Source: Verrucomicrobiota bacterium (lineage in GTDB: Bacteria > Verrucomicrobiota > Verrucomicrobiia > Limisphaerales > JADLHS01). Taken from it: a stretch of 64,000 nt of DNA. Under the pieces are notes generated by a model. The model had not been told where the DNA came from. It did not search any database and was given only the letters and a program-made list of their open reading frames with translations. The stretch covers positions 29,856 to 93,855 of the forward strand of contig JBDHQI010000003.1 of NCBI GenBank assembly GCA_039806955.1, read 5' to 3'. Shown here in pieces: positions 24,483 through 43,758 of the stretch. The first letter of the stretch is position 1, and every line of letters starts with the position of its first letter. The position numbers and the translations under genes are program-made.

Positions 24483-24495
24483 GATGGCATCCTGT

Positions 24496-26957: not shown

Positions 26958-27046
26958 AATTCGTCATCTAAAATTGGATTTCGGAAATAATCTGCCTGTA
27001 ACAAGACAGAGGACTCCCCTGACACAAAGGACAGGGAACGGAGAGG

Positions 27047-27090
27047 AACTTGAATCAGGCCCGCGCGATGGCGCGCAGTTGATTCAAGTT
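27047..27090 (-). other. two-tier intercistronic stem-loop (11-bp outer + 5-bp inner stem)
   Basis: AACTTGAATCA (27047-57) pairs with TGATTCAAGTT (27080-90). Inner GCGCG (27063-67) pairs with CGCGC (27072-76). It starts at the stop codon of 27089-27550 and precedes the tolC-like gene. Confidence 0.5.
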
Positions 27091-27550: not shown

Positions 27551-27603
27551 TTGAAATCCGCCCGTATATTATTGAAATTGATTCTCACCGTCAACGCCGC
27601 TGG

Positions 27604-27894
27604 TTACTTCTTGGCCTTCTTTTCCTCCTCGGAAAGTTTCTTCATGTATTTGGCACTGTCCTTCTTGAAGTCGGAGAGGCAGCCCTTGCAGCAGAGTTTG
27701 ATTTCTTGGCCTTCGTGCGTGAACACGTAAGGATCGCCCATGCTGCCAAGCTTTTCGCCATCGGTGATGCAGGTCGTGAGCGGATACGGCTTGGGTTTGT
27801 CAGCTTTCTTGGCATCGTCAGCAAATCCGGCGAACGGCGCGGCCAGCAGGGTGGCAGCGATGAGTGCGGCAAAGGCGTGTTTCAATGATTTCAT
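27604..27894 (-). CDS. secreted YHS/TRASH-like Cys protein
   Basis: Signal peptide ..APFAGFA, then YPLTTCITDGEKLGSMGDPYVFTHEGQEIKLCCKGCLSDFKKDSAKY (C..CC-x2-C-x3-F pattern as in YHS/TRASH metal domains) and a Lys/Glu tail. Confidence 0.6.
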   Translation of the reverse strand: MKSLKHAFAALIAATLLAAPFAGFADDAKKADKPKPYPLTTCITDGEKLGSMGDPYVFTHEGQEIKLCCKGCLSDFKKDSAKYMKKLSEEEKKAKK

Positions 27895-27932
27895 GGCTTT
27901 TAATCTTATGTCGTGTTCAGACCGACGCTTGT

Positions 27933-27957
27933 ATTACGCCGGTGCGCGGCAAATCCC
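27933..27957 (-). promoter_or_regulatory. ECF-type promoter candidate GGGATT-N13-CGTAAT
   Basis: Minus strand reads TGAGGGATTTGCCGCGCACCGGCGTAATACAAG, 39 nt upstream of start 27894. It heads the RND operon 2 gene string. Confidence 0.55.
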
Positions 27958-28069
27958 TCAAAAATCTTTTGGCCGTGCCAGCGCATACCTGATCAGACAC
28001 CGGGACGGGCTGAAGATTCAATTTGACGCGGCTGGCACGCCACCCGTCTCATGTTGAGGGATAACCCGT

Positions 28070-29362
28070 ATGGACACGACTGCCTTGGTTGAATTGATCG
28101 CCCGCTACAAAGCCGACCCGGAGTCGGTCTATAACACCTGGTTCATCAACGGCGCGGAGCGCATGAAGGCGTTTCGCGCGATTCGACGCGGGGTGAAGGA
28201 CACGGTTGACGCCATCGCCGCCGGCACTTTTGGCAATGATTTCAAAGGCTCGCCGCTGGAAATCGTGCTCACGGCCATCACGGAGCAAAAGCAGGTCTTT
28301 GAGGGCGCGGCCCATCCGTTTTACTGGAAGCCCAAGCTGCGGATTCCCGACATTTACGAGAATCAGATCAACAAACAGAAGTTTGGCGCATTTCTGCAAG
28401 CGTGCCTCGTCGCGACTCGCGAAGACCAGGTGCTTGCCGAAATGAGTCGCCTCGGTTCGGCGCAAATCAAAGGGCTTGGCCCGGCGGCTGCCAGCATCAT
28501 TTACTTTTTACACCCAACGCTCGTTCCGCCGTTCAACACGGCGATGGTCAACGGATTCAACGCACTGTTTGCGGACAAGAAGAAACTCGGTTCGTGGACC
28601 AGCTATCTCGACATGCGCGAAGTCATCGTCCGCACGAATGACGAAGTGCGCGATCATCTCTCGAAAGACCTTGGCGCGTTTGCTGGTTTGTTATTTGAAA
28701 TCGGCAGTGGACGACTCGTCATCGCGGGCAATGCCGAGAACGTGCTGCAAGACGCAAAAGAGAAAGCGGTGAAAGTCGCCCGTGCTCGCCACAAAGATGT
28801 CCTGGCCGAACAAGAGGAAGAATCCGAGCACACGCGGATGCAACACCTGCTCATCAAAATCGGGCGTTCGCTGAAATACGATGTCCATGTCGCCCGCAAC
28901 GACCGGCATCGCACCTGTCACGGCGAAAACTTTGCGATGCTCACCGTGCCGCAACTACCACCGCAGAACTTGTCGGCGGAAGTGATGGACACCGTGACAT
29001 TGATTGACGTGATCTGGCTCAAGCCCGGCAACGGCGAGATTGTGAGCGCGTTTGAAATCGAGAAAAGCACGTCCATCTATTCCGGCATCCTGCGGCTGGA
29101 GGATTTAGCGCGCTCGATCCCCAACGGCGCGTGCCCGCTTTACCTCGTCGCGCCGAATGACCGCGAGAAGGAAGTCTTGGCACAATTGGCCCGTCCCGCG
29201 TTTCGCGCCGACCTTGAAAAAATCTCGCTCGCGTTTCTGCCGTTCAAGGAGCTTGCCGAACATTGCGACGCGCTTTGCAAGTTTGGAGACGACCACACGA
29301 TCTTGCAGAAGATTGCACGCGGCTTGAAGTCTTCCGCGCCGCCGCTTCAGCCGGCCAATTGA
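28070..29362 (+). CDS. PD-(D/E)xK nuclease-fold protein (restriction-endonuclease-like), solitary
   Basis: 430-aa ORF. The C-terminal HLLIKIGRSLKYDV...TLIDVIWLKPGNGEIVSAFEIEKSTSIYSGILRLEDL fits a D...(D/E)xK core (IDV..EIEK). The N-terminal ~230 aa domain is unassigned. It is the only plus-strand gene between 19.4 and 34.4 kb. Confidence 0.55.
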   Translation: MDTTALVELIARYKADPESVYNTWFINGAERMKAFRAIRRGVKDTVDAIAAGTFGNDFKGSPLEIVLTAITEQKQVFEGAAHPFYWKPKLRIPDIYENQINKQKFGAFLQACLVATREDQVLAEMSRLGSAQIKGLGPAAASIIYFLHPTLVPPFNTAMVNGFNALFADKKKLGSWTSYLDMREVIVRTNDEVRDHLSKDLGAFAGLLFEIGSGRLVIAGNAENVLQDAKEKAVKVARARHKDVLAEQEEESEHTRMQHLLIKIGRSLKYDVHVARNDRHRTCHGENFAMLTVPQLPPQNLSAEVMDTVTLIDVIWLKPGNGEIVSAFEIEKSTSIYSGILRLEDLARSIPNGACPLYLVAPNDREKEVLAQLARPAFRADLEKISLAFLPFKELAEHCDALCKFGDDHTILQKIARGLKSSAPPLQPAN

Positions 29363-29371
29363 GCTTCGTTC

Positions 29372-29869
29372 TCAATTTCCAACGCGACTGTAAGTGTCGG
29401 TGCGCGAAACGTCGTCGTGATTCATCATCTGCTCGCGCAGGCAGGTTTGCTCCTGCACCCAGGATAAATAGCGCCTACCTTGTTCCGGCGGCATGGCGCG
29501 GCTGACTTCAAAGAAATGCTTGAGCATCGCGGTCTGACATTCGCTTCGCATTTTGGCCCGTTCGGTGAGTGCGTTTTCAATTGCGGGCGTCAGGTCGGAA
29601 GTGGTGGCAAGCAATTGGCCCAGCCTGTCGTTCATTTGCCGGATGAGACGACAACGCTCCCGGCACTGCGGGAGATAGGCTTCATGCAATTTTGAAAGCC
29701 GCTCGAATTCCCCGTCGCTTAATTTGAACTCCTGCTTGAGCCAGACGAGTTCGGGTTGGCGGCTTTGCAACAATGCTCGCGGCCCGGTCGTTCCTGCCAG
29801 ATAGATGCAGTAATAGGAAGCAATTGCTGCCATCATACCGAAACCGAGAATCAAGAATCCGCGTCGCAT
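29372..29869 (-). CDS. membrane-anchored helical periplasmic sensor, CnrX-like architecture (copy 2)
   Basis: N-terminal TM (FLILGFGMMAAIASYYCIYL). It shares PEL.WL..EF, LH.AY.P.C.E.C, R.EC.TAML.HF and MPPEQG.RYL.WVQ.QT with 31666-32154. Confidence 0.7.
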   Translation of the reverse strand: MRRGFLILGFGMMAAIASYYCIYLAGTTGPRALLQSRQPELVWLKQEFKLSDGEFERLSKLHEAYLPQCRERCRLIRQMNDRLGQLLATTSDLTPAIENALTERAKMRSECQTAMLKHFFEVSRAMPPEQGRRYLSWVQEQTCLREQMMNHDDVSRTDTYSRVGN

Positions 29870-29872
29870 AGC

Positions 29873-30217
29873 TCACCTGGCCGCTTGATAGGGATCAACC
29901 GATTGCACATAGCGCTGGCTCATCTGTGTGCTAACTCGCAACCTCTCCTGCTGCGCCTGCGCCCACCCCGCACTTGCACCAATGACGAGGAGGATCGCCA
30001 CGTAGGAAACGGCCAACCCGGGGCGGCGCAACCGCGCGTCAACCCAGCGCGCGCAAGTCAGCCACAGGGCAACGAGAGTGGAAGGCTCGTCTTCTTGGCG
30101 CGCGATTTGTCGCCAGACTCTCTCTTGGAAACGCGGTGGCAACGTGACTGTGATCTTGCACTCGCGCAACAAGGCGCTCAATCCCGCGTCCTGCTCAATT
30201 CGTGCTTCGGCTTTCAT
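29873..30217 (-). CDS. single-pass anti-sigma-like protein, CnrY-like architecture (copy 2)
   Basis: 114 aa with LPPRFQERVW in the cytoplasmic part, one TM (LAVSYVAILLVIGASAGW) and a short periplasmic tail ending YVQSVDPYQAAR. Paralogue of 32155-32493. Confidence 0.6.
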   Translation of the reverse strand: MKAEARIEQDAGLSALLRECKITVTLPPRFQERVWRQIARQEDEPSTLVALWLTCARWVDARLRRPGLAVSYVAILLVIGASAGWAQAQQERLRVSTQMSQRYVQSVDPYQAAR

Positions 30218-30227
30218 TGTTTGATTC

Positions 30228-30257
30228 GGAGGGCGGTGGGTTTGAGCCGCGCCCTCC
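30228..30257 (-). other. GC-rich stem-loop between repeat-protein gene and anti-sigma-like gene
   Basis: GGAGGGCG (30228-35) pairs with CGCCCTCC (30250-57), 11 nt upstream of the 30217 start. Its position is equivalent to the hairpin at 32501-32525. Confidence 0.4.
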
Positions 30258-30287
30258 AGTTTGGTGGTTGCCGGTTTTGATTCGCTC

Positions 30288-30692
30288 TCACTTCAATGGC
30301 GCGATCTGGTAAGCGCCGTTGCGCTCGTCGAGAAACTGACGGAGTTTCGGCGAGGCTGTGATACCGTCATCGCCGGTCGCGCGATAGCCGACCTTGACGA
30401 CTGCTGTTCCGGGCATGCTCTCCACACCACGGCTGTCATTGATGAATTGCCGCAGTTTCGGCGAAGCGGTTATCCCATCCACGCCGGTGGCTCGATAACC
30501 GACGGACGCGACGGTGGCAGACTTCGCGCCTTTCACCATCGGCTTGCCGCGCTCATTCATAAACTGGCGCAGTTTGGGAGACGCCGCGATGCCATCATCG
30601 CCCACGGTGTTGTGTTGAGCCTGGCTTTGGCTGGTCGAGGCGAGCAAAGCGACTGCGGCGGCTGCAATCAGAATCAATTTTGTATTTTTCAT
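30288..30692 (-). CDS. secreted repeat protein (3x DGI(T/A)ASPKLRQF) with YQIAPLK tail
   Basis: Start moved to ATG 30692 (MKNTKLILIAAAAVALLASTSQSQA). Repeats are GDDGIAASPKLRQFMNERG, GVDGITASPKLRQFINDSRG and GDDGITASPKLRQFLDERNG. It ends AYQIAPLK. Confidence 0.75.
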   Translation of the reverse strand: MKNTKLILIAAAAVALLASTSQSQAQHNTVGDDGIAASPKLRQFMNERGKPMVKGAKSATVASVGYRATGVDGITASPKLRQFINDSRGVESMPGTAVVKVGYRATGDDGITASPKLRQFLDERNGAYQIAPLK

Positions 30693-30738
30693 AGTGTTAC
30701 TTTCGTTGGGTGCGCTTTGTTCGCACCATCCACTCTTC

Positions 30739-30763
30739 ATTACGCCGCAGCCGGGAAAATCAC
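30739..30763 (-). promoter_or_regulatory. ECF-type promoter candidate GTGATT-N13-CGTAAT
   Basis: Minus strand reads CGAGTGATTTTCCCGGCTGCGGCGTAATGAAGA, 47 nt upstream of start 30692. Confidence 0.5.
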
Positions 30764-30834
30764 TCGCAGGAAGGAAAAAGCCGTCTCGCTGCGAACTTCG
30801 GCAGTGAGACGGCTGAGAAGGAATGGCCTTGGGG

Positions 30835-31041
30835 TCAGCGTTTTTCGACTAGCGCCATACCGCACTTGGGGCAGCTACCGGGCTTGTCCTGCACAACTTC
30901 CGGGTGCATACCACATGTGTATTTGACGGCCTGTCCACTGCCTTGCGTGGAGGATTCTTTTTTGCAGCCGGTCGCACCAATGGCAATGACTGCGACTGCT
31001 GCAACCGTGAACGCAGCGATGATGAGTTTGGATGTCTTCAT
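30835..31041 (-). CDS. small lipoprotein consisting of one HMBD module
   Basis: [26 protein letters not shown], then a short linker, then [28 protein letters not shown]. Confidence 0.7.
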
Positions 31042-31072
31042 GTTGTGTCGTTTGTGGAGTGAGGTTTTCGGT

Positions 31073-31669
31073 TCACGCGTAACTTTTCAGCAGCCAGCCG
31101 AGGTTTTCGCGCAAGAGTTTTCGGGCGCGGTAAATCCGCGTCTCCACCGCCTTTGGAGTGCAAGCCAGGATCGCGCCAATCTCCGCATGGGAAAGTTCCT
31201 CATATTCGGAAAGGATGAGTGGCGTGCGGAGTTCTTCGGGCAGTTGACCCACCGCGTTACGAACGGCTTCCGCCCGCTCTGCGCCTTGCAGTGACTCGCT
31301 GGGTGTCGGTTTGTCCTCCGCCACGCTCTCCCGGAAGCTCTCGCCGGTAACTTCGTTTTCTGCGTCCAGCGACACTTGCGGATGGCGCGTGCGGTAGCGG
31401 TAGCGGCTTTTGACGAGGTTGGTGGCGATAACGTAAAGCCATGTCGAAAACTTGTGGCTCGCATCGAACCTCGCGCGGTTCTGGTAAACGCGCACAAATG
31501 TCTCCTGCGCGAGATCAGCGGCATCCTCCTCGCTTTGCAAACTGCGGACCAGATAGTGAAACAGTTTCTCGGCGTGTCGCTCCATGAGATCGTTCAACGC
31601 CGCGTCGTGGCCGGCGACCAATCGCGCCATGTCCGTCCGATCCGGGTCGTCGGTCGTGGCGGAATTCAT
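31073..31669 (-). CDS. ECF sigma factor (CnrH-like position in a Y-X-H module)
   Basis: Start moved to ATG 31669 ([17 protein letters not shown]..), giving an ATGA overlap with the upstream stop. Region 2 is [42 protein letters not shown]. Region 4 is [33 protein letters not shown]. Confidence 0.85.
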
Positions 31670-32154
31670 GGTTTGTTCATCGGAGCGACAGACGGCGAAT
31701 CGCCGGGCATCATCTTGCTCGGCTTCAAGGTTTGCTGCTGCACCCAATCGAGATAGCGTTTGCCCTGCTCGGGGGGCATGGTCTGCGCGACCTTGTAGAA
31801 GTGGTCAAGCATCGCGGTTTCACACTCGGCGCGGATTTCAGCAGCTTGGGCGAGCGCCTGTTTGATCTCCGGGGTGATGATGTTGGTGGCGGCGAGCAAC
31901 CTTTGGATTTCTGCGTTCTTCGCGTCAATCGTGCGGCACATTTCCTCGCACTTGGGCGCGTAAGCATTATGCAGTTCCATGACACGCGCCAACTGCGCGT
32001 CGGTGAGTTGAAACTCCATCTGCAACCACGCCAGCTCCGGGCGGGTGTTGCGTTCAACAGAACGCTGTGCGGATGTTTTGCCGAAATAGATGCAAAGGTA
32101 GGCGCACACCGCGAGCGCCAGCCCGCCGAAGATGATGAGCCACGGACGTTTCAT
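31666..32154 (-). CDS. membrane-anchored helical periplasmic sensor, CnrX-like architecture (copy 1)
   Basis: N-terminal TM (WLIIFGGLALAVCAYLCIYF). Helical periplasmic domain with C-x3-C (PKCEEMC), AEC, HF and MPPEQGKRYLDWVQQQT. Confidence 0.7.
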   Translation of the reverse strand: MKRPWLIIFGGLALAVCAYLCIYFGKTSAQRSVERNTRPELAWLQMEFQLTDAQLARVMELHNAYAPKCEEMCRTIDAKNAEIQRLLAATNIITPEIKQALAQAAEIRAECETAMLDHFYKVAQTMPPEQGKRYLDWVQQQTLKPSKMMPGDSPSVAPMNKP

Positions 32155-32493
32155 TCAGTTGCGGGGCGCTTGATACGGGTCAATGGACTGAACGTAGAGA
32201 GAGCGCATCTTGGATTCGGTTTGCGCGGTCTTGTCCTGCGCTTGCAAGTAGCCCGCTCCCAAGCCGACGAACAGGAGCACGGCGACATACACGGTGGCAA
32301 ATGCCGGACGCCGAAACACGGCCTCAATCCAGCGAACAGCCCCGGCAAAGACGCTCTGCGGCTTGCTTGCTTCCGCCCGGTCAATGGCTTTCCAAACCCG
32401 CTCTTGAAAGCGTGGCGGCAATGATGATTGTGGCTTCCACTCGTGGAGCAGTCCGCTCAACTGCCGGTCATTTTCGGGAATAGGTGTTTTCAT
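32155..32493 (-). CDS. single-pass anti-sigma-like protein, CnrY-like architecture (copy 1)
   Basis: 112 aa with LPPRFQERVW, a TM (FATVYVAVLLFVGLGAGYL) and a tail ..YVQSIDPYQAPRN. Its stop abuts the next start (TGAATG). Confidence 0.6.
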   Translation of the reverse strand: MKTPIPENDRQLSGLLHEWKPQSSLPPRFQERVWKAIDRAEASKPQSVFAGAVRWIEAVFRRPAFATVYVAVLLFVGLGAGYLQAQDKTAQTESKMRSLYVQSIDPYQAPRN

Positions 32494-32500
32494 AACGTGT

Positions 32501-32525
32501 GGGCGGCGGATTCATTCCGCCGCCC
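32501..32525 (-). other. perfect 10-bp GC stem-loop between repeat-protein gene and anti-sigma-like gene
   Basis: GGGCGGCGGA (32501-10) pairs with TCCGCCGCCC (32516-25) with a 5-nt loop. It ends 8 nt upstream of the 32493 start codon and has no U-tract. Confidence 0.5.
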
Positions 32526-32558
32526 GCTAAGTGTCGTTTGCGCGCCCGACATTTCAAG

Positions 32559-32909
32559 TTACTTCAGCGGCGCGATTTGAACTTCAGCCTTGCTGACGGC
32601 GTTGGCGCGGAGCGCGGCCTCGTAGCGCGAGTCTTTGGGCGACATCGTGGGGCGCGGCGCATGGGCCAGGTCAATACTCGGACCAGTGCTGGGCACAGAG
32701 CGGAAACTGCGGGCGAGTTCCCACGCTTTGGCGTTTCCTGCCGGGCGGTCCAGCGCCAGATTCACGTCGCTGGTGGCGGCGGGGACTTTCTTGAGCGAAT
32801 CGGCGAGGGCTTTGGCCTTCGGCGAATAGAGGGGTTCACCGGCATTGGCGTTGGCCGCGAGCGTGAACACACCGACAGCGGCAACTGCGAGGAGGATCAT
32901 TTTTTTCAT
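32559..32909 (-). CDS. secreted divergent SPK/AKA-repeat protein with VQIAPLK tail
   Basis: Start moved to ATG 32909 (MKKMILLAVAAVGVFTLAANANA). Degenerate repeats are YSPKAKALADSLKKVP, GNAKAWELARSFRSVP and MSPKDSRYEAALRANA. It ends AEVQIAPLK. Confidence 0.7.
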   Translation of the reverse strand: MKKMILLAVAAVGVFTLAANANAGEPLYSPKAKALADSLKKVPAATSDVNLALDRPAGNAKAWELARSFRSVPSTGPSIDLAHAPRPTMSPKDSRYEAALRANAVSKAEVQIAPLK

Positions 32910-32963
32910 AGCTTTATCTTTCTTTTTGCTGCGGCGTTTTGCCGCTGTTAATTCACATCCTTG

Positions 32964-32988
32964 AATACGCCGGGGGTCAAAGAATCCC
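32964..32988 (-). promoter_or_regulatory. ECF-type promoter candidate GGGATT-N13-CGTATT
   Basis: Minus strand reads TGGAGGGATTCTTTGACCCCCGGCGTATTCAAGG, 55 nt upstream of start 32909. The unit it heads contains the sigma gene 31073-31669. Confidence 0.55.
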
Positions 32989-33080
32989 TCCAAGATTCTT
33001 CAAAAGTGTGAACGCGAGGTAGATTTCTCAACGCAACCCGCAGAAATGCAGCCTAAAATGGAAGAAGACGACCCGAAGAC

Positions 33081-33932
33081 TTATCGCGCTTGGATGCGCT
33101 TTTCCAAGATTACGCGACCGGCCTTTGCATCAATGGTGACGGTGGAAAACCGGGAAAGCAGGCCGTTGCCGAGCAAACCAGCCTCGCCGGGAAAGATTGC
33201 CTTTTCGTGCAAGCCGGTTGGAACGTCGGAAAACTGATTTCCACCAATGCCGACAGATGTTTTGGTCTGAGGAATGGAAATCTCGGCCAAGCCGATGGCC
33301 ATCTGGTGCGTGCATTGGTCGGGCACATCCGAAGTCACCCATTGCAGCGCGGTGGCGCAACCGGTGTCGAGCCGCACCCATTGGCGGTCGTGACCATTTA
33401 CGCTGATCGGCACGCGCATCCCGCAGGAACGCAATTGGAGCGGCAAAGTTTCGCCGGATTGTCCGCCCTTCGGTGATTTCACCAACCGTATCTTCTTCGC
33501 GTCGAAATCAATTTGCACCACGCGCTCGCGAAAGAAATCCGCACCCACCAGTCCGTCCACGGGTCGCTCGCATGAACTGCTCAACTTTTCCAAATCAACC
33601 GCCAGATATTCGCTGGGCAACTTCGTGTCGCCGATTTTGGCGATCATGTGTTGCTGCCAATAGCCGGTGAGCATCGTGTCCACGCCGCGAACCGTGACCT
33701 GTTGTCCCAGCTTCAATCCGATGCGTTTGGCCGTGTCGAGATTGATGACGCTGACGCCCGCGCCGGTATCTACGAGAAAATTGAGCGGCTTCTCCGACTG
33801 CGGGATGACGACTTTGATCCAAAGCAATCCCTCGCGGTATTCAAACGGAAACTCGGTGGGAGAAGTTGCCGCCACTTCGTCGCGAGCAAACGCGACTTGA
33901 ACGGCTAAAATTGAGCACAACAACCAACGCAC
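33081..33932 (-). CDS. secreted two-lobed retropepsin-like aspartic protease
   Basis: Signal peptide MRWLLCSILAVQVAFA. Two catalytic-type motifs, FLVDTGAGVSVI and VRLDTGCATALQW, each sit in a ~120-aa lobe. Confidence 0.75.
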   Translation of the reverse strand: MRWLLCSILAVQVAFARDEVAATSPTEFPFEYREGLLWIKVVIPQSEKPLNFLVDTGAGVSVINLDTAKRIGLKLGQQVTVRGVDTMLTGYWQQHMIAKIGDTKLPSEYLAVDLEKLSSSCERPVDGLVGADFFRERVVQIDFDAKKIRLVKSPKGGQSGETLPLQLRSCGMRVPISVNGHDRQWVRLDTGCATALQWVTSDVPDQCTHQMAIGLAEISIPQTKTSVGIGGNQFSDVPTGLHEKAIFPGEAGLLGNGLLSRFSTVTIDAKAGRVILEKRIQAR

Positions 33933-34454
33933 TCCCGACAGCTTGCAGGAACAATGCCGTCGAAATCAACGGCAACCGATGCCTCAAAACTAAGGGGTTT
34001 CGCAGACAGCTATGAAGCGCGCATGATTTTATGTGTCGCCTTTTGCTCATGCCGTCGAAGATTTGCCATCGTTTTGTGCGACCCGCTCCCGTTGGCCGAA
34101 TCATGTTTTGCGAAAAAGCTTCGGTCGGGAGTTTGACGGCGTGAAGCGGAAGGCGAAGCGGACGGAACGAAATGAGTGAAGCCGCGCAGCCAGAGCGACG
34201 ACGCCAAACTCCCGACGGAAGCGCCGGCGGATGCGTTGCGTGTGGAGAATTCCGCTCGTGACGAGCGCGCGGTTTGTGACGCGGAACGGGCGTCGTCGAG
34301 AGGGGGACAGGGACGACGGGTAGCCCGTGGAGAGGAGCAAGCCGCGCGTTGGTCACGGCGGCTTCCGTCTCCGTGTGAGACGATAATGCAGATTGTCGGC
34401 CTCCGCTCCATCAGATAGCCTTCGGAGAACGCAGCGCACGGAAACCCTTGGCAC

Positions 34455-37400
34455 ATGGACATCTTTGAAGTTCACCGTCGAATTATGGACGATTATGCGA
34501 GCTACATTCGCAGTTTCGTTTCCATTTCTGATGATGAGATGCGCAAGCGGGTCGAGCAGCATCTGAATGACGGGCATCTCTGGCCAGAGCCGCTGCTGAC
34601 ATTCAATCCGTCGTTCGCGAAGGTTGGACGGATTGAAGAACTCGTCGCGTCGAAGGTGTTGGCCGCGCCATTGGGGGATGCGTTTCGTGGCTACGAATTG
34701 TTCGAGCACCAGTTGCAGGCGATCCAGCTTGGCGCGGGCGGCAACGATTTCGTTGTCACCTCCGGCACAGGTTCAGGGAAATCGCTCACTTACATCGCTG
34801 CGATTTTTGATCACTTGTTCAAGTCTGGCAATCCGATGCCGAACGGAGTGACGGCGGTAATCGTTTATCCGTTGAACGCGCTGGTGAATTCACAGGAGGA
34901 GGAGCTTCGCCGTTACGCTGAAAATTACAGCCTGGCACGCGGCGGCGAGAAATTTCCCATTCGCTTTGCGAAATTCACCGGCCAGGAGGACAAAACCCGC
35001 CGTGACGAATTGGAAGCTGAACCGCCGCACATTCTCCTCACGAATTACATGATGCTGGAGTTGCTGCTGACCCGTGGGGGGCAACGAACCTTGCGAGAGG
35101 CAATTTACGATCAGGTTCGCTTTTTAGTTTTTGATGAGCTGCACACCTATCGCGGTCGGCAAGGCGCGGACGTTGGCCTGCTCATTCGCCGGATTCGGGC
35201 GCGGGCAAAACACCCGGTCGTCTGCATCGGCACTTCTGCGACGATGATTTCGGTCGGCACGATTGCGGAACAAAAGCAACAGGTGGCGAAAGTCGCCGAA
35301 CAACTTTTCGGAAAGTCCTTCAATCCCGAAGCCGTCGTTCGTGAAACGCTGGTGGCAAAATTTCCCGGCGCTCCCAAATCGGACGCTTTGAAATCGGCTG
35401 TTGCCACGCCGGTGAACATAAACGCGCCGGAAGCGGCGCTGTTGGCGCACCCGACAGCCGCATGGCTCGAAGCTCTCATCGCCTTGGCCGAGCGCGAAGG
35501 GCAACTGGTTCGCAACAAGCCGTTGCGCTTTTCCGATGTCGTCGCTTTGCTGGCGGATGCAACGGGCCTTTCGCAACCGCAGTGCGATGCTCATCTGCGC
35601 GAAGTTTTGCTTTGGATTGGCGGAACGAACAAGCGCCTGCTCGATTCGGGCAAGCGATACACGCACCTGCCGTTCAAGCTTCATCAGTTTTTTTCTCAAA
35701 CGGGCGCGATCTACGTCACCCTCGACCGGGGAGCGGAACGTCACATTACGTTGCAGGCTGGGTATCATGTCGTCGGCGAACCAGACAGGCCGCTGTTCGC
35801 CGCCGTCTTCAGTCGCTACTCCGGCGAGACGCTCCTTTGCGTCTCGAAAGACCCGGCGGGCCGCAAACTGATGCCGCGTGCATTTTATCCGTCCCAAGAC
35901 GAGGAAGACGACATCACACGAGGCTATCTCATCCCGAACGCCGACTTGTGGAATCCCGAAACTGATTTGGAACTGCTGCCCGATTCCTGGCTGGACATAA
36001 ACTCCTCCGGGCAAATCCGCGTGCAAAAGAAATACAAAGCGCGGATACCGCAACGCATCTATTACGACACCCACGGCAATTGCTCGGATGAACCGCGTGA
36101 GGGCTGGATGCAGGGATGGTTCATGACAGCGCCGTTGCTGTTCGATCCGACTTCGGGACTGATGCCCGACCGTCAGACGAAGGATTCCACCAAGCTCAGT
36201 CAGCTTGGCACTGAAGGTCGCAGCACGGCGACTAGCATTTCTGCTTTCGCGATTCTCACACGAATGGCGGAACATGGCTATCGGCTGCGTGACCAAAAAC
36301 TTCTCAGCTTCACAGACAATCGGCAGGACGCCGCGCTTCAAGCCGGGCACTTCAACGACTTCATGGATGTCGTCCGGCTGCGCTCGGCGATTCGCAAGGC
36401 CGTCGAGATGGCGGAAGGAAAGGAACTCCGCCTCACTACGCTGGGTCGGGCGGTGCGCGTTGCCAGCGGCCTTCGATTTGATGATTACGCGACGGGCGGT
36501 TCGGACCTCCCGGAATTTCGCAAACGCATTTACGAAGAAACACTGGAAAGCTACTTTGCGTTTCGCTCAATCCACGACCTGCGCCGTGGCTGGCGCGTGG
36601 TGCTGCCCAATCTCGAACAATGTGCGCTACTAGAAATTGACTACGACCATCTCGACGAGATTGCCGCGATGGACAAACTCTGGGCGGATGTTCCGGTGTT
36701 CAACCAAATCAGCGCAGGCGACCGCCGTGAGTTGATTCGTGCGACGCTTGATTTCTTCCGGCACGAATTCGCGCTTCATAGCGAATCGTATCTGACGGAA
36801 GCGAAAATCAAGGAACACGCGACGGCCTTCCGCGAACGGCTTCGCGCGCCGTGGCGGTATGAGGATGAAGACGATATTCCGTCGCCCGCTTCGATTCGCA
36901 CCGAATCGCTCGCGCGTTACAGTCGCCGCGAGACGAGGAGCATCGGGCCGCAAAGCGGATACGGAAGGTTTGTGCGTCGTTTCGCGCAAGACAAACTGAA
37001 CCACACATTGAAGGCTGCGGACTACCAGGACTTCATCGAGAAGTTGTTGGCCGCGCTGGAAAACAAAGCCGGTTACTTGACCAGCACGGAAGCTAAAAAT
37101 CGCGAGGGCAAACCAACTCGTCTCTACCAACTGAAACTCACGGAAGTCATTTGGAAGCCCGGCGACGGTCAGACCGTGCGTGCGGACGCAGTGAAGTCGC
37201 GCGCTTACAAAAAGCTCGAACTTCGTCCGAATTCATTTTTTCAGGGCGTTTATCGCCGCGATTACGGCGTCGGAAAGCTGCTGCTCGCCGCCGACCATAC
37301 CGGGCAACTCAACTACAAAGACAAGCAGGATCGCGAGGATCGCTTTCGCGCGGAGTGGAAGACGAAAGATGGTCGCGACGACGAAAGCGAAATCCGTCGC

Positions 37401-37550
37401 CGCTCCATCAGTTCGCTGTTCTGTTCGCCAACAATGGAATTGGGGATAGACATCGGCGGCTTGAGTGTCGTCCACATGCGGAACGCGCCGCCGAATCCGG
37501 CGAACTACGCGCAGCGCAGCGGTCGCGCGGGTCGCAGCGGACAGCCACCG
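34455..37550 (+). pseudogene. SF2 DEAD/DEAH-box helicase of the large defence/repair-associated type, truncated just after motif VI
   Basis: Motif I TSGTGSGKS, Ia VYPLNALVNSQ, II FDELH, III TSATM, VI QRSGRAGRSGQP. Immediately after motif VI (about nt 37545-37555) the frame switches to hydrophobic membrane-protein sequence. No C-terminal domain (for example DUF1998-type) is present. Confidence 0.6.
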
Positions 37551-38048
37551 GAATACATCCACACGCTGCTGAATCCGCTGCCAGTTTATGGATTAAGCAT
37601 GGGTGTGCTGGCTTTGATGGCAGCCTTGTTCACGCGAAGTCGTGCAGCGAAGGGCGTCGCGCTGGGAATCATCATTCTTACATCGGCGGCGGCGTGGCCA
37701 GTTCTGCATTACGGGCAGAATGGTTATCAAAACGTCAGCAACACCAGCGATGAAGAAGGGAGACGCTGGCTGGCGGAACACATGGCGCGCGCGGCAAAGT
37801 TTATCTGGGGATTTTACGCGACCGCGTTGCTCGGTGTTGCCGCGCTGGTCAGTTTGAGAAAATTCCCGAAGGCAGCGAATCCACTGACGGTGACGACGCT
37901 GATTGTGGCCGTGATTTCGCTGGGCGTCGGCGCGTGGGTCAGCCGCGCGGGCGGACAAATTCACCATCCGGAATTTCGCCACGAACCCGCGCCGTTGGAT
38001 TCTTCCTCAGCCAGTGAAGATCATCATTCATCAGAAGCAAACCAATAG
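37551..38048 (+). pseudogene. 3' fragment of a polytopic membrane-protein gene fused in frame to the helicase
   Basis: ..YGLSMGVLALMAALF..GVALGIIILTSAAAWPVLHYG..FIWGFYATALLGVAALVSL..LTVTTLIVAVISLGVGAWV..HHPEFRH.. followed by a stop. It is followed 7 nt later by a multicopper-oxidase 5' stub, so it looks like a piece of a copper locus. Confidence 0.5.
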
Positions 38049-38055
38049 AATTACC

Positions 38056-38220
38056 ATGAAATCAAAACCGTCGAACCGCCGCCCTTTTCAACTGCTCGCC
38101 GCCACAATCCTTGCGCTCTGCGCCCTGCCTGTCGCCGCTGCGACTGTGGAATATCATCTCACCATTGCGGAGAAGGCCGTGAACTTCACGGGCAAGCCGC
38201 GCACCGCCATCGCGGTCACC
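38056..38220 (+). pseudogene. 5' stub of a Tat-exported multicopper oxidase (CopA/CueO-like)
   Basis: MKSKPSNRRPFQLLAATILALCALPVAAATVEYHLTIAEKAVNFTGKPRTAIAV. This shows a twin-Arg signal plus the typical MCO N-terminus. It breaks off near 38220, where the sequence becomes antisense of an integrase-like fragment. Confidence 0.5.
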
Positions 38221-38442
38221 CCACGTGCGGGTTGCGGCTTTGGGGTCGCTTACGGAAAGGTAAGCCCTGGCAATCTGCAAATTGATAATCGGCTGGCGGT
38301 GCGCCTCGTTCCTGGCCTGAAGAAGTTGCTCCGCTTCATCCCGGTCCTTTACGCCAAGCGATTCCTGTTTCCTCGTGAAGTTGTCCTGAACCCAATAAAC
38401 AGAACCACGGAGGAACATCCGAAACTTTTTCTTTACGCTCAT
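38221..38442 (-). pseudogene. N-terminal stub (~74 aa) of a probable tyrosine recombinase/integrase
   Basis: MSVKKKFRMFLRGSVYWVQDNFTRKQESLGVKDRDEAEQLLQARNEAHRQPIINLQIARAYLSVSDPKAATRTW resembles phage/ICE integrase N-termini. The rest of the 126-aa track ORF is antisense of the MCO stub. It lies next to the tRNA-like sequence. Confidence 0.45.
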
Positions 38443-38614
38443 AATTTTTCATTACGAGCTTAGAGCGGTTTCCTCTCGACCAGTCAGAACTGTCTGAGCC
38501 CCTTTTGCCGGTATGGTGCCGGTGTAGTGGCATCGTCAGTTTGTTTGCTGACGATTTTGCTGACAGTTCGCTCGTCAGTCCTCCAAAAACCACTGAAACA
38601 CGCGGGTTTCAGAT

Positions 38615-38689
38615 TGGAGGCGAGGGTCGGAATCGAACAGATGCAGGGAGTTTTTTCAAAATCCACTACTCCGTTACTACCACCCCGCC
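38615..38689 (-). pseudogene. degenerate tRNA-like sequence (GAA-anticodon-like loop, encoded CCA)
   Basis: Minus strand reads GGCGGGGTGGTAGTAACGGAGTAGTGGATTTTGAAAAAACTCCCTGCATCTGTTCGATTCCGACCCTCGCCTCCA (75 nt). The acceptor stem is 7 bp (1 G-U), with a TTCGATT T-loop and a TTGAAAA loop. However, the D-arm does not pair and the T-stem pairs at only 3 of 5 positions. Confidence 0.4.
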
Positions 38690-38994
38690 ACCAGAGGCGA
38701 ACAGCCTCATAACTAACGAACGCCAATAGAATCAGGCGTTTTCGCGTTTGTGTCAAGCACTCGACATCACGCACCAGATACCAAGCAGCTACTCCCCAAT
38801 TACTCATTTATCACCCGTTCACTGGCACTTTCACTGGCACTTCCTTATGCAAAAATGCCCTGTTAATCAGGGCTAAATGGCATTCGCCATCGGTGTGTGT
38901 TTGCTGACGCGACAGGGCATCTGCCGATGAGTTTATCCGCCGTGTTCATCCCGTCTGCACCCGCGCCTCTGGTTGCTCCGCGCAACCTCGCGCC

Positions 38995-39131
38995 AGCGGT
39001 CGAAACATCTTTTCGACCGCTGTCACTTTGTTGCTGATGCTCCGCTGCCCGGCGGCGCGGGCGCAGACGGGTGCGTTTCGTCAGGAGCGGGGCTGCTCTC
39101 TCCGTGCGGTGAAGAGAGCAGTCCCGCTCCT
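38995..39131 (+). other. two long perfect or near-perfect hairpins in the radC leader
   Basis: Hairpin 1: AGCGGTCGAAA (38995-39005) pairs with TTTCGACCGCT (39011-21). Hairpin 2: a ~19-bp stem, 39083-39101 with 39113-39131 (one G-T), and an 11-nt loop, ending 20 nt before the radC ATG. Confidence 0.5.
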
Positions 39132-39150
39132 TCGGAACGAAACGCAAAAC

Positions 39151-39696
39151 ATGAACACAACGGAAAACCTCATCTCCACTGGATGCCCCGCAACCACTCC
39201 GCAGCCCATCAATCAAATCATCAAGCCGGTAAAATTCCCGGCTCAACCGCAGGAATGGAAAATCGTATCACTTCGGGAATGTCCCACACCTGACACAATG
39301 CAACAGTGCGAAACACCGGATCAGGCAGCCGCCTATTGGAAAACGCACATCGCGACACATCCTTACTTCAATTCTGAATGTGAATGTCTGGTGGTGTTCA
39401 TCCTCAACACACGTCGGCGCATCAAGGGTCACTATCTGGTGTCCATTGGAACGATGGATACAATTCTCTGTCATCCCAGGGAAGTATTCCGTTTAGCAAT
39501 CATGGCGAGTGCCGCTGCAATCATCATCGCGCACAATCATCCGAGCGGTGAACCAACTCCGTCCGAAGCGGACATCAAAATCACCCGCGACCTCATCCGA
39601 GCCGGTCAACTTCTTAAAATCGAAGTTCTCGACCACATTGTAATTGGAAATCCCAACCATTCATCGCTCCGCTCCTTGGGTTATTTTTACTCCTAG
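39151..39696 (+). CDS. radC: RadC-like JAB/MPN domain protein
   Basis: Start moved to ATG 39151 (MNTTENL..). JAMM motif is AAIIIAHNHPSGEPTPSEADIKITRDL, followed by LDHIVIG. Confidence 0.85.
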   Translation: MNTTENLISTGCPATTPQPINQIIKPVKFPAQPQEWKIVSLRECPTPDTMQQCETPDQAAAYWKTHIATHPYFNSECECLVVFILNTRRRIKGHYLVSIGTMDTILCHPREVFRLAIMASAAAIIIAHNHPSGEPTPSEADIKITRDLIRAGQLLKIEVLDHIVIGNPNHSSLRSLGYFYS

Positions 39697-39780
39697 CCGA
39701 TCACGGCTTTCCCAAAAAAGGGGAGACCGCTGCTTGATCGAGCAGGTTGGACGACCTTCATTCCGTCCCCGACAGATTTC

Positions 39781-40137
39781 TCATTCCTGGTCTTTTTGAG
39801 CGCGCTTCTCAACATCTTTGGTCTCCGTAACGACAATTTCGACAATCACCGGCTGTCCCTCCGCAATTAGTTTCCGCTGACTGCTGGACAAAGCGGCGAG
39901 GAATGACAATTCCATTCGCTGCATCGTCGTCTCGATTCGGCGCAAGGCGTTGCCGCGAATCAAAACCTCGTGGGTCGCGAAGACCAAACGAAGATGCTGC
40001 TGCTTCGCTTCGGTTTTTAGTTCGGCGAAAGCGAACTGGTCAAACGGCAGCAATAGACTCCGTTCAGCCGACAGTTCGATTTTGACGCCGTGAGCGTTCG
40101 GATCGCTCGACCAACATTCGGGTGTTTTTGTGTTCAT
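39781..40137 (-). CDS. hypothetical protein (mobile-element accessory?)
   Basis: 118-aa ORF with balanced composition. It overlaps the Arg-rich 3' tail of the relaxase-helicase frame by 74 nt. No family recognised. Confidence 0.4.
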   Translation of the reverse strand: MNTKTPECWSSDPNAHGVKIELSAERSLLLPFDQFAFAELKTEAKQQHLRLVFATHEVLIRGNALRRIETTMQRMELSFLAALSSSQRKLIAEGQPVIVEIVVTETKDVEKRAQKDQE

Positions 40138-41461
40138 GTTTTTGCATTGGTTTTAGGTGACGACGATGCGCCAGTTTCAGCCGACAAAACGTGTCGGCGG
40201 CACGTTGTCCAAATCGAAGCATGTAGCCGTGCAACCGATCCCATAGCAGACGGCGTCCGCGCGGAACAAAGCCCGTCGCGAATTCCATTGCCAGTGGCCG
40301 ATGGCCGGAGCGGGTGACATTCTCGCGTAGCTGTTGCTTGTCCGGCGTGAAGATGCGGATGCCACGCCGCCCCCGCGAAATGGTCACATACCATTGCTGC
40401 GCGTTCGTCGCGGGCTTGATGGTCGAATCGGAGAACAAAACATAATCCACCGTCTTGCCTTGCGAACCGTAGGACGTGACCGCGTAGCCGGGAAGAAATT
40501 CACGGAATGATTTGTCCAGGACGCGGCCATCGGTGAGTTCAACTCCACCATCGGGACGAACTGACTTTGCGGTGACAAGCTCGCCATTCGTGACGCGCCC
40601 GCCCGAAGCCAGTTTGCGGTTCGCTTTGAGATGAAGACGGTCGCCTTGTGCGACCGAGATTTCGCGCGGGAGATAAACCGTAACGTGATCCAGAACTTTA
40701 TTTGAAACGGTGATGAACTTCCCGCCGACCTCGACGAGCACGCTTGATTTCAAAATGCCCGCCAGCTTTCCTTTCGCGCCCGGTTCAGCTTCACGCACTT
40801 TCTGATTGAAGACTACGACGGCATCAGGCGGGTAGAATCGTTCATCCCGTTTCTGCGCGTTCGTCAGGTCGAGCTTGTCCAGGACTTGAACCGCCGTGTC
40901 GGTTGCACCGAGCAACCCTTTGCCTTTGAGCGCATCGCGGACGCGCGAGTTGACCCGATGCACTTCACCCCAAGTCTGCGAGACGACGACCGCCGAAGCG
41001 TCTTGCTCGGCGAGTCGAAGATATTCTTCTGCCAGCTTGTCGGCTTGATCGCCCAAGCCGCACGCCACGACTGCGCCCATCTTGTCGAGGCGTTCAAACG
41101 ATTCACTCAATTTGCCCGCCGCCGCTGATTCGACCGCGTTTCGATAATCCTTGATGCGTGTGCGCTCATCGGCGTCTTTGCCAAGCGCGGGGTCTTGCCG
41201 ACGAATCTTGTGTAACTCGACCGGCCTGACGCCGGCGTGCCGCTCAATTGCCAGCAACGCGTCCGAAGCCTCAACTGCTCCGTGCTGCCGCGTGTCGCCC
41301 GAAAGAATCATTCGAGCATTACGCTCGCGGACCAACCGCATCAATTCCAACATTTGCCGCCCACCGATTTGCCCGGCCTCGTCCACGACAACGACGGCGT
41401 GTTCAGCCAGTTCACGCTTGAGGATGAAATTGGCGACCGTGGTGGGCGACGGGAATGGCGC
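40064..41461 (-). pseudogene. 5'-truncated conjugative relaxase-helicase (TraI/TrwC/MobF-type helicase half only)
   Basis: The frame is open from the stop at 41462-64 and begins mid-domain: ..ELAEHAVVVVDEAGQIGGRQMLELM..ARMILSGDTRQHGAVEA.. (Walker B onward). UvrD_C-like YAVTSYGSQGKTVDYVLF is present. There is no Walker A, no relaxase domain and no plausible start (the track M is an internal GTG). Confidence 0.65.
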
Positions 41462-41516
41462 TTAGGAAGGCACGCCGGGAGTGTGCATGTTTGGTTCAGG
41501 AATCGGCTTGTCGCCT

Positions 41517-41573
41517 GATTAGTTTAGGCGGTATAGTTAAAGCATGGCTTTAACTACGCGCCACAAACTAATC
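41517..41573. promoter_or_regulatory. nested palindrome centred on the abiEi-like start codon (candidate autoregulatory operator)
   Basis: Outer arms GATTAGTTT (41517-25) and AAACTAATC (41565-73). Inner arms AGTTAAAGC (41535-43) and GCTTTAACT (41547-55) flank the ATG at 41544-46. Both tiers share the same centre (41545). Confidence 0.5.
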
Positions 41574-42287
41574 AAAAGCCTGCAAACAGCTTTCCCACGC
41601 GGGACGCCGTTTGACCATCAACAACTGGCGAAATTGGGCGTGTCGTCGGCGTTGGCGCATCATTATTTGAAGTCGGGCTGGCTGACGCGACTGGGACGCG
41701 GTGTCTTTATGTTTCCGAACGACACATTGCGTCGGGACGATTGTTTGAAATTCCTGTCTCGTCAAATGCCGGGCTTTCACGTTGGCGGGAAAACAGCATT
41801 GGCTTGGCGCGGCGTTCGCCACAACCTGCCCGCACGTGAACCGCTGTCATTGTGGGGCGAGGGAAAGGCCAGCTTGCCGGAATGGTTTGAAAAGCTGTTT
41901 CCGTCGCGCTACACGACGCGAAACCCGTTCTCCCCCAAGTTGCCAAAGAACTTTGGCCTGCAACCGCTGCCCGAAACGTCCGGCGGAGTTCTCGTCTCCG
42001 TGCCGGAGCGAGCGTTGCTGGAAATGTTGAGCGAAGTGGGTGTGCATCAGGGAATCGAGGAGGCCCGCAATATCATGGAAGGGGCAAGGTCGCTCAGGCC
42101 AGAAGTGTTGACCACGCTGCTGAAGAACTGCCGGCGCGTCAAAGTCGTGCGGCTTTGCGTGAGTTGGGCAGAAGAACTTAACTTGCCGTGGGCCGACGCA
42201 GCGAAAAAGGCAGCGGAAAAGCGATTGGGCCGCGGTCGCTGGATGCATCGCCTCAAGGACGGAACATATCTCGTGCTGAAATCATAA
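41544..42287 (+). CDS. AbiEi-like (type IV TA antitoxin family) wHTH regulator
   Basis: N-terminal FDHQQLAKLGVSSALAHHYLKSGWLTRLGRGVFMF fits the AbiEi N-terminal wHTH pattern (..G.L.R..RG.Y). It is 247 aa. No nucleotidyltransferase toxin gene follows. Confidence 0.65.
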   Translation: MALTTRHKLIKSLQTAFPRGTPFDHQQLAKLGVSSALAHHYLKSGWLTRLGRGVFMFPNDTLRRDDCLKFLSRQMPGFHVGGKTALAWRGVRHNLPAREPLSLWGEGKASLPEWFEKLFPSRYTTRNPFSPKLPKNFGLQPLPETSGGVLVSVPERALLEMLSEVGVHQGIEEARNIMEGARSLRPEVLTTLLKNCRRVKVVRLCVSWAEELNLPWADAAKKAAEKRLGRGRWMHRLKDGTYLVLKS

Positions 42288-42557
42288 TGGACAAAGCTTA
42301 TAGGCGGCTGCCTGATCCGGTGTCTCGCACTGTTGCATGGTGTCGGGTGCCGGCGAGCGAACGAAGCGGTCCTTGCGGACAGCTACGTTGGCGTTGAATT
42401 ACCAGCGACGAACAGGCTCATCTGGCTGAAAGGCCAAGTGACGCACGAATTGTTGGGACGGACAGGACAGACACGACGAATGTGACCGGAAAAGGCTCAA
42501 AATCCCAATTTGCGGGTGTGAAAATAAGAAGCCGGCTTATTTGCGTTTTTTGGCTTT

Positions 42558-42603: not shown

Positions 42604-43758
42604 ATGGCCAGCCAATCGAACATTCCGGGCCGGAAAGTGCCGCTGGGCAAATACGAAGCCTTCGTGCCTGCCCCACTGCCGCCCAAGTTTGAATGGACGC
42701 CGCGATTGATTCGAGTCCTTTCGGATGCTGATCGTCTGATTGGAAAACTTGCCGGGGAAGGCGGACGCCTGCCGAACCCGCATGTCCTCATGCGACCGTT
42801 CGTGAAACGTGAGGCCGTTCTTTCCAGCAAAATCGAGGGGACACAGGCCACGCTCGGTGAACTGCTGGCGGCGGAAGCGGGCGCAACCGTGGATCGCAGT
42901 CCCGAAGACTTGCGCGAAGTGGGCAACTACGTCATCGCGCTGGAACATGGCATCGCCCGACTGAAAGACCTGCCGCTTTGTGTCCACATCATCCGCGAGT
43001 TGCACGAAAAACTGATGACGGGAGTTCGCGGCGAACAAGCGACGCCCGGACGCTTCCGTAAAATCCAGAACTGGATTGGGAAACCCGGCAGCACGCCGCC
43101 CACGGCGTCCTTCGTGCCGCCACCGCCCGATGAAGTTGAACCGTGTCTGGCTGCGTGGGAAAAATTCGTTCATGATTCGGATTTGCCGCCGTTGATCACC
43201 GTGGCGCTGGCACACTACCAGTTTGAAGCCATCCATCCGTTCCTCGACGGCAATGGCCGTGTCGGTCGTTTGCTCATCACGCTCTTTCTGATTGAACGTG
43301 GCATACTGCCCACGCCGCTGCTCTATCTATCCGCATTCTTTGAGGCCGCACGCCGGGATTACTACGATGGCCTGCGTGGAGTGAGCGAGCGCGGCGAATG
43401 GAACGAATGGCTTGAATACTTTTTGCTCGGCGTGGCGCGCATGTCTGACGATGCCCTGAACCGCGCGACGCGGATCAACACAAAACTCGCCGACTGGCAG
43501 AAGAAAGTGGCTGGCGACTCGACCAACGCGCCGTTGCGCGTGGTGGAACTTCTGGCGGCGAATCCTTTCATCACCGCGAAAGGCGCGGCGGACAAACTGG
43601 ACGTGGCGTTCACGACGGCACAACGCGCAATTGAGCGATTGGCGCGATTGAAGATCGTGAAGCAGGTCGGTGACGCCAAGCGCGATCGCGTTTATTGTGC
43701 CGATGCATTGCTGGACATTCTGGAAGAACCGGCACAATTACGACCACAGAAAGAGTAG
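42604..43758 (+). CDS. Fic/DOC family protein (AMPylase-type) with N-terminal inhibitory helix motif and C-terminal wHTH
   Basis: Start moved to ATG 42604 (MASQSNIPG..). The active-site loop is HPFLDGNGRVGRLL. The upstream SSKIEG matches the (S/T)xxxE(G/N) auto-inhibition motif. Confidence 0.9.
   Translation: MASQSNIPGRKVPLGKYEAFVPAPLPPKFEWTPRLIRVLSDADRLIGKLAGEGGRLPNPHVLMRPFVKREAVLSSKIEGTQATLGELLAAEAGATVDRSPEDLREVGNYVIALEHGIARLKDLPLCVHIIRELHEKLMTGVRGEQATPGRFRKIQNWIGKPGSTPPTASFVPPPPDEVEPCLAAWEKFVHDSDLPPLITVALAHYQFEAIHPFLDGNGRVGRLLITLFLIERGILPTPLLYLSAFFEAARRDYYDGLRGVSERGEWNEWLEYFLLGVARMSDDALNRATRINTKLADWQKKVAGDSTNAPLRVVELLAANPFITAKGAADKLDVAFTTAQRAIERLARLKIVKQVGDAKRDRVYCADALLDILEEPAQLRPQKE

Follow-up and report, generated by a model that had tools for sequence, protein, structure and literature searches.

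Introduction

In Streptomyces ambofaciens, repair by non-homologous end joining (NHEJ) captured fragments of 30-83 bp and left microhomologies at the scars together with large flanking deletions (PMC5869714). Single-stranded DNA of mobile elements can also integrate at mismatch-tolerant "extended microhomologies" (10.1101/2024.07.02.601687). Here we analyze a rearranged locus in a 64,000-nt stretch of a Verrucomicrobiota genome assembly (GCA_039806955.1, contig JBDHQI010000003.1, positions 29,856 to 93,855; "the window", numbered from its first letter), in which the open reading frame (ORF) of a defence helicase runs into a fragment of a copper locus, and this fragment abuts the 5′ end of an integrase gene on the opposite strand. 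The scar is a well-documented example of an ordinary kind and represents neither a new mechanism nor a new system.

With microhomology scars in decaying integrative elements the window shares sharp breakpoints, exact microhomologies of 2-4 nt, the loss of mobility functions and adjacency to a defence hotspot. It differs in the density of its joints, of which there are at least five in 4.8 kb, and in that 100%-identical parents exist for three of the segments, which makes the first joint (J1) reconstructable to the nucleotide. As in the NHEJ capture of Streptomyces, ectopic DNA lies between broken ends, the scars show microhomologies and the flanking deletions are large; the pieces in the window are larger, from 50 bp to 3.2 kb. 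The extended, mismatch-tolerant microhomology of SPDIR (short-patch double illegitimate recombination) finds its counterpart in the 8 of 10 matching positions at J1, but SPDIR gives microindels, whereas the window has kilobase insertions and multi-kilobase deletions. The mobile pieces resemble integrative and conjugative elements (ICEs) of the TrwC (MOBF) type, whose tyrosine integrase targets a tRNA 3′ end: the gene set of such an element is found in the parental contigs L015-L019, and the window differs in holding rearranged fragments only.

Results

Overall architecture of the locus

The locus is very probably a dead and very recent scar, in which pieces of an ICE were joined non-homologously, guided by microhomology, onto a defence helicase cut after codon 1030. 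Judged by alignment to intact parents, what is left is a rearranged remnant of a copper ICE joined to a cut defence helicase. Every segment follows its parent collinearly until a sharp breakpoint is reached, without any difference where a near-identical parent is available. We compared the helicase with L030 and L031, the copper fragment with L015, L016 and L019, and the ICE block with L019 and L024 (identity 99.9-100%), and found zero substitutions in about 10 kb of these three segments. At least five novel joints (J1-J5) fall inside 4.8 kb and delimit pieces of 677, 3238, 843 and 50 bp.

A sequence-only reading had described a triple scar at an island edge, in which three unrelated coding sequences adjoin without intact ends. 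Such an arrangement is indeed present, with each breakpoint now located against intact parents, and the ORFs 34455-38048, 38014-38463 and 38062-38442 are chimeras, as it proposed. "Triple" undercounts the joints, and the integrase stub does not mark an island edge: it terminates a 3.2-kb block of ICE sequence that lies inverted (38219-41456).

Junction J1 fuses the helicase in frame to a membrane protein

The 1197-aa ORF 34455-38048 consists of 1030 residues of a superfamily 2 (SF2) helicase followed by 168 hydrophobic residues. Its helicase part, the 5′ fragment of a DruE-like SF2 defence helicase (34455-37543, plus strand, codons 1-1030 of 1721), ends just past motif VI (QRSGRAGRSGQ) and lacks the 691 C-terminal residues. 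Up to 37543 it is 100% identical to the intact 1721-aa alleles L030 and L031 from other metagenomes, which then run on as helicase.

J1 occupies positions 37538-37547. In a three-way alignment, the helicase parent reads ...AGCGGACAACCAGCG, the window ...AGCGGACAGCCACCG and the copper parent ...TTCGGCCAGCCACCG. The window equals L030 and L031 with 0 mismatches to 37543, and equals L015, L016 and L019 with 0 mismatches from 37542. Since the A at 37541 is specific to the helicase and the G at 37544 to the copper parent, the crossover lies in the CA at 37542-37543, within an imperfect microhomology, CGGnCAnCCA, in which 8 of 10 positions match and 2 nt are shared exactly. In a permutation test, a match of 8 out of 10 was reached by only 0.38% of random junction registers. 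The switch from helicase to membrane protein had been noticed from the sequence alone; its placement at 37545-37555 has to be moved to this CA.

Both parents encode Gly-Gln-Pro at J1 in the same phase, and the fusion is in frame for that reason, without selection being invoked. The fused product (1197/1187 aa; P0068, P0069) is confined to five contigs of one strain, one from NCBI (198 kb) and four from Logan, and the other full-length members listed in its 90%-identity cluster are 1720-1721 aa long. It is therefore no conserved intact gene, and it is probably a functionless, accidental by-product of the shared Gly-Gln-Pro codons.

The copper fragment derives from an intact copper locus

Downstream of J1 lies a 677-bp plus-strand piece, 37542-38218, made of two truncated genes. 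The 3′ fragment of a copper-module membrane protein (37542-38048, plus strand) covers codons 35-202 and the stop of a 202-aa protein; hydropathy confirmed the predicted four-helix tail and showed that the parent's signal-like first 34 residues are lost. A search with the 169-aa tail returned a family of membrane proteins of about 202 aa, one of which is 100% identical across the whole tail. The intact protein, P0150, has entries in 119 index blocks that cover public assemblies.

The stop codon TAG (38046-38048) is followed, 7 nt on, by the ATG at 38056 of a CopA-like multicopper oxidase that opens MKSKPSNRRPFQLL..., at the spacing first read from the sequence. Only a 5′ stub of this gene is present (38056-38218, plus strand, 54 codons and 1 nt of 795 codons). 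It encodes a twin-arginine motif, NRRPFQLL, and then a hydrophobic stretch, although no TAT_signal model matched at E <= 0.001. The three cupredoxin domains with copper ligands that define CopA are missing from the stub, which keeps only the 54 codons of the signal region; the parent oxidase (L019 2651-5038) has all three, Cu-oxidase_3, Cu-oxidase and Cu-oxidase_2, and scores 434.8 bits against TIGR01480, whose cut-off is 478.95.

Intact versions confirm that the middle piece comes from a copper locus. A relative of 77.6% identity has the membrane-protein gene in a large copper locus, with a 799-aa multicopper oxidase 5 nt after it; where the parent is 100% identical, the spacing is 7 nt and the oxidase has 795 aa. 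By BLAST, window positions 37538-38218 (681 bp) are 99.7-99.9% identical to the intact loci, with both alignment ends abrupt, which excludes chance. Against L015, L016 and L019 a single base differs, that at 37541, which belongs to the helicase side.

We also considered whether the fragment copies an intact locus in the same genome. A 40-mer scan of the species-representative genomes was negative and the contigs are unbranched at the joints, and this candidate was rejected.

The strand switch at J2 and the integrase stub

The match to the copper parent breaks off at 38218, close to the cut at about 38220 first proposed. Here junction J2 (38215-38219, with the joint at 38218/38219) switches strand, from oxidase codon 55 to about codon 75 of an integrase. 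The 5′ stub of this ICE tyrosine integrase (38219-38442, minus strand, about 75 of some 365 codons) runs from 38442 to about 38219 and encodes MSVKKKFRMFLRGSVYW... (74-76 residues), in agreement with the roughly 74 aa read from the opposite strand. Its alignment partners are the N-terminal regions of complete tyrosine recombinases, 347-366 aa long. A 365-aa Phage_integrase protein at the equivalent site of a related ICE (L016) shares 60% identity with the stub at its N-terminus, P0231 shares 56%, and both of these have PF00589. An exhaustive profile search with the stub gave 2312 relatives, and some of these, of 347-366 aa, carry Phage_integrase as their C-terminal domain. In the window, integrase sequence is left after residue ~75: the catalytic domain (R-K-H-R-H/W-Y) is absent, and no Pfam match was found.

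Asp76 is conserved across the integrase family. This suggests that integrase-derived sequence reaches 38215, which would give an overlap of up to 4 nt (GTCA/TGAC) with the copper parent, and the possible microhomology at J2 comes to 0-4 nt. In the intact relatives L016-L019, some 7.5 kb separate copper fragment and integrase, and one strand encodes both. J2 is therefore a strand-switch joint within one element and not a joint between two unrelated loci, and the copper genes were, as had been supposed, once part of a mobile element, the same one as the integrase.

Relatives of the stub are mostly short ORFs (62-140 aa), even on long contigs, and in several of them the sequence departs from the family consensus around residues 61-75, not far from the end of the stub. 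One relative, P0146 (L014 101-340), is a frameshifted integrase, a short stub homologue followed by a frameshifted Phage_integrase ORF. As explanations of the break in the window, a split (SSV-type) integrase and a recurrent truncation hotspot were considered and rejected: the adjoining copper parent explains the break, and full-length relatives exist.

The inverted block and its parent element

From 38219 to 41456 the window is the reverse complement of a contiguous 3.2-kb ICE block holding the int stub, a pseudo-tRNA-Cys with attachment (att) site, RadC, a small ORF and the 3′ part of TrwC. It matches L019 at 99.93% (38609-41456), L024 at 100% (39522-41456) and, from 38258, both L017 and L018 at 96%.

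The 75-nt pseudo-tRNA-Cys (38615-38689, minus strand) ends in 24 nt (38638-38615) that equal the 3′ end of tRNA-Cys(GCA) in 13 Verrucomicrobiota genomes scanned. Related elements diverge directly after these 24 nt, and we therefore take them as the attachment core; the core is unique within the window. The order RadC-core-int is the attP-type arrangement of an excised or tandem element. A real tRNA beside the integrase was ruled out: ARAGORN and Rfam found none, and what stands there is a pseudo-tRNA-Cys of which the 24-nt 3′ core is genuine. No tRNA-Cys gene occurs in the window, whose only tRNA is tRNA-Asn at 50058. Elsewhere, the core is present without a called tRNA in L069 (2299-2322 and 3904-3927) and in L096; a copy in L100, on the same contig as L096, lay outside the tRNA scan. 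These copies, found in some Verrucomicrobiota genomes, are likely att repeats of integrated islands.

The RadC-like JAB-domain gene (39151-39696, plus strand; Pfam RadC, E = 7e-37) is collinear with L019 at 99.93% and inverted relative to the copper fragment. It is followed by the 3′ fragment of a TrwC relaxase/helicase gene (40064-41456, minus strand, codons 489-951 of 951), which lacks the catalytic relaxase domain. The fragment is 100% identical to L024, L015 and L021 until 41456; it has a partial AAA_30 domain only, against TrwC and AAA_30 in the parent (L019 5626-8481).

In the parent element, L015-L019, ParA and a coupling protein lie upstream, and the set continues with the 951-aa TrwC relaxase, RadC, the 24-nt tRNA-Cys core and the integrase; its copper cargo comprises the membrane protein, the CopA-like oxidase and Csp. 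Copper fragment and integrase stub, by this gene order, belong to the same TrwC-relaxase ICE targeting tRNA-Cys. The window does not hold a functional ICE: the integrase breaks off at codon ~75, codons 1-488 of the relaxase are missing, the att core occurs once, and no type IV coupling protein or type IV secretion system is present in the window. No conjugation genes were found in window 1-33 kb.

Joints J3-J5

Junction J3 (41456/41457), where the window breaks away from four ICE parents, leads from the interior of the relaxase gene into the region upstream of an AbiEi gene. The AbiEi module (41457-42301, plus strand) contains the gene at 41544-42287 (PADLOC AbiEi, E = 1e-63) and the first 5 codons of an AbiEii toxin gene (42287-42301, plus strand), cut at J4 (~42299-42302). 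Eighty metagenome loci share only 41452-42302 with the window, and in them AbiEi overlaps a downstream AbiEii toxin gene (PF08843). Many of these canonical loci have a conserved stretch of about 35 nt upstream of AbiEi in common, which is missing from the window.

Beyond J4 lies a second radC fragment of 50 bp (42300-42349, minus strand), which forms an inverted repeat with 39287-39336 and ends at J5 (42349/42350). It is 94% identical to the radC of the block and 96% to that of L161. The 94% inverted repeat (39287-39336 / 42300-42349) could support a later inversion of the ~3-kb segment between its arms.

The AbiEi of the window is an orphan antitoxin, and a Fic gene (42604-43758) comes after the 50-bp radC fragment. 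In other metagenomes, AbiEi-AbiEii lies about 1.1 kb from tRNA-Cys-like cores (L158, L159, L188, L231), and in L161 the module stands just past the radC-core junction. Look-ups of AbiEi and of an extracytoplasmic function (ECF) sigma factor for the ancestral right-hand context returned only contigs of the window strain.

The truncated helicase and its intact operon

The helicase matches Pfam DEAD, ResIII and Helicase_C, the last of which ends at residue 1029. PADLOC DruE models match it at E = 1e-63 to 1e-74, with the profile aligned in parts only. For DrmA there is only a weak match (E = 1e-9 to 1e-11; 16 bits in NCBIfam, where 950 is required), and the NCBIfam scores for DpdJ and DrmA are far under their cut-offs.

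In strains whose neighbouring Asp-protease gene is identical, the helicase is intact, and genes for a DpdE/DrmD-like SNF2 helicase and a DrmMI-like methyltransferase come after it; both partner genes are absent from the window. Evidence for a 198-aa ORF and an LmuB-like gene comes solely from L013, a relative of 85% identity. Compared with described systems, the helicase is like Druantia in matching DruE, but it stands without DruA-D, DruM/F/G or DruH, and its partners are DpdE/DrmD-like, DrmMI-like and LmuB-like. The partners in intact relatives (DpdE/DrmD-like and DrmMI-like) recall DISARM and Dpd loci; the difference is that no DrmB (DUF1998) or DrmC was found. From all three the window differs in that the truncated helicase alone remains. 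A link between the helicase operon and the ICE backbone was tried and rejected, as the two share no similarity.

In L032 (154-1332), a Wadjet JetD-like gene (DUF3322/JetD_C) takes the place of the helicase operon found in the window and in L025-L031. It adjoins an identical Asp-protease gene, the equivalent of window 33081-33932, and the flank by this gene appears to be a variable defence hotspot.

The region to the left

Window 1-33000 is a heavy-metal resistance island with genes for outer-membrane efflux proteins, MerR, a MerT-HMA fusion, a CopZ-like zinc finger, HMBD proteins, a CzcB-like adaptor, several ECF sigma factors and Metal_resist proteins. Its 1082-aa ORF (21234-24482) has 66% DNA identity to an ACR_tran gene of L002 (a CusA-type resistance-nodulation-division pump). 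Positions 23081-37546 are 98.3-99.99% identical to contigs of many unrelated samples (6 of 10 at >=99.96%), which suggests that this region is itself part of a widely spread mobile region.

Discussion

The probable course of events can be outlined. Pieces of a tRNA-Cys-targeting, TrwC-type ICE with copper cargo would have been joined to a helicase gene broken after codon 1030. The joints would have arisen by end-joining or template switching at microhomologies and not through an integrase, a transposase or homologous recombination. Because the inverted block spans RadC-core-int, it would stem from an excised or tandem ICE. The net effect would be the loss of the defence operon and the immobilization of the ICE remnant. 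What is absent from the window includes the catalytic domain of the relaxase, the coupling protein, the catalytic domain of the integrase and almost the entire oxidase. Microhomology-guided illegitimate joining fits best because no transposase, terminal repeat or long repeat was found at the joints and J2 lies 395 nt from the att core.

Three other accounts of the joints deserve attention. That they were made at secondary att sites by the integrase of the ICE, or by an insertion sequence, might be thought of because an integrase gene and the att core lie within 400 nt of J2. J2 is, however, inside the integrase ORF, 395 nt from the core, J1 and J3 are inside coding sequences without similarity to it, and there is no transposase, terminal inverted repeat or target duplication, so that we give this account hardly any credence. 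An error of metagenome assembly, wrongly joining the helicase operon, the ICE and other loci, comes to mind since the window is from a metagenome-type assembly, every parent is common, at 100% identity, among public metagenomes, and contigs of other runs break in radC at 39387 and 39486. Yet the Logan k=31 contigs L012 (SRR19427028) and L037 (SRR15900773) are 100% identical across J1 and J2, and L009-L011, from three runs, across J3-J5. These independent contigs cross the joints without branching, and overlaps of 2-4 nt are well under any k-mer and unable to create a k-mer path. Reproduction of the joints in other runs and overlaps of at most 4 nt thus argue against a k-mer artefact, and a chimeric assembly is very improbable. 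Equally far-fetched, in our judgment, is the idea that the helicase core with its four-helix membrane tail is a selected, working protein. The reading frame is kept across J1, and the helicase promoter and the entire ATPase core (motifs I-VI) are intact; but the frame is kept because both parents encode Gly-Gln-Pro at the joint, the fusion is seen in the contigs of one strain without divergence, the operon partner genes are gone, and the membrane part has no signal-like N-terminus.

If the joints are the product of microhomology-guided joining, they may have accumulated in steps or at once. Zero substitutions in about 10 kb and the lack of intermediates point to a short time span, whereas the diverged radC fragment points to at least part of the history being older. 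Stepwise decay in place, with ICE copies beside the defence operon whittled by deletions and an inversion, was the view of the sequence-only reading and is the history we lean toward, if only slightly. A diverged second radC and an AbiE module that elsewhere stands beside tRNA-Cys att cores (L161, L158, L188, L231) suggest repeated island turnover, and the neighbourhood is a variable defence hotspot, with JetD of L032 in the helicase's place. Such a course requires at least three events at J1-J3 without substitutions in about 10 kb, and a deletion-only version requires two or three ICE copies in opposite orientations; moreover, the RadC-core-int adjacency is unlike a single integrated copy and the window has no tRNA-Cys gene. 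Nested insertion and deletion, as first proposed, is accordingly one possible history and not a demonstrated one, as no intermediate was found. A single catastrophic event, in which one double-strand break in the defence operon or one collapsed fork was healed by multi-fragment stitching, we hold to be rather unlikely. Its ingredients would be two pieces of an excised ICE, a piece of an AbiE module and a 50-bp radC piece, put together by end-joining or serial template switching. Such an event would account for five joints in 4.8 kb between pieces of 677, 3238, 843 and 50 bp, the random-looking orientation of the fragments, the microhomologies of 2-4 nt wherever these are resolvable, and the unsubstituted helicase, copper fragment and ICE block. 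The block spans attP, hence a circular or tandem source, and the contigs are unbranched at the joints, so intact parents are not abundant in those samples. No intermediate with J2 only was found either, although this search, by exact-protein look-ups only, had little power. Against one event stand the radC fragment, which at 94% identity to the block radC has another source, and the stepwise gathering of such scars that is common in decaying mobile-element clusters.

Several points weigh against the microhomology-guided scar as we describe it, or limit its detail. The 98 nt at 39388-39485 in radC are bridged only by the window's own assembly, and the adjacency of J1/J2 to J3-J5 rests there; independent contigs all stop at 39387 or start at 39486 (another at 40451). 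Support for the joints comes from assembled contigs. No near-identical parent exists for the integrase stub, the AbiEi module and the sequence right of J5, so that microhomology at J2-J5 is only partly resolved.

Many ICE contigs of other samples also break inside radC. The contig ends suggest that radC variants in those communities share k-mers at 39387-39486.

Three ORFs that annotation pipelines take for genes (1197, 149/135 and 126 aa) prove to be chimeric pseudogenes, unfit to seed protein families. The strain has recently lost a multi-gene defence operon and keeps the immobilized remnant of a widely spread copper-resistance ICE. With intact parents public at 100% identity, the locus offers a clean natural case of microhomology-guided joining in soil Verrucomicrobiota. 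That all five joints come from one event, a break in the operon patched with excised copper-ICE fragments (perhaps of an incoming element cut by the same helicase-methyltransferase system) and other loose DNA, is distinctly unlikely. If true, a one-event origin would give multi-fragment end-joining or chromoanasynthesis a natural counterpart in bacteria, here in an uncultivated Verrucomicrobium.

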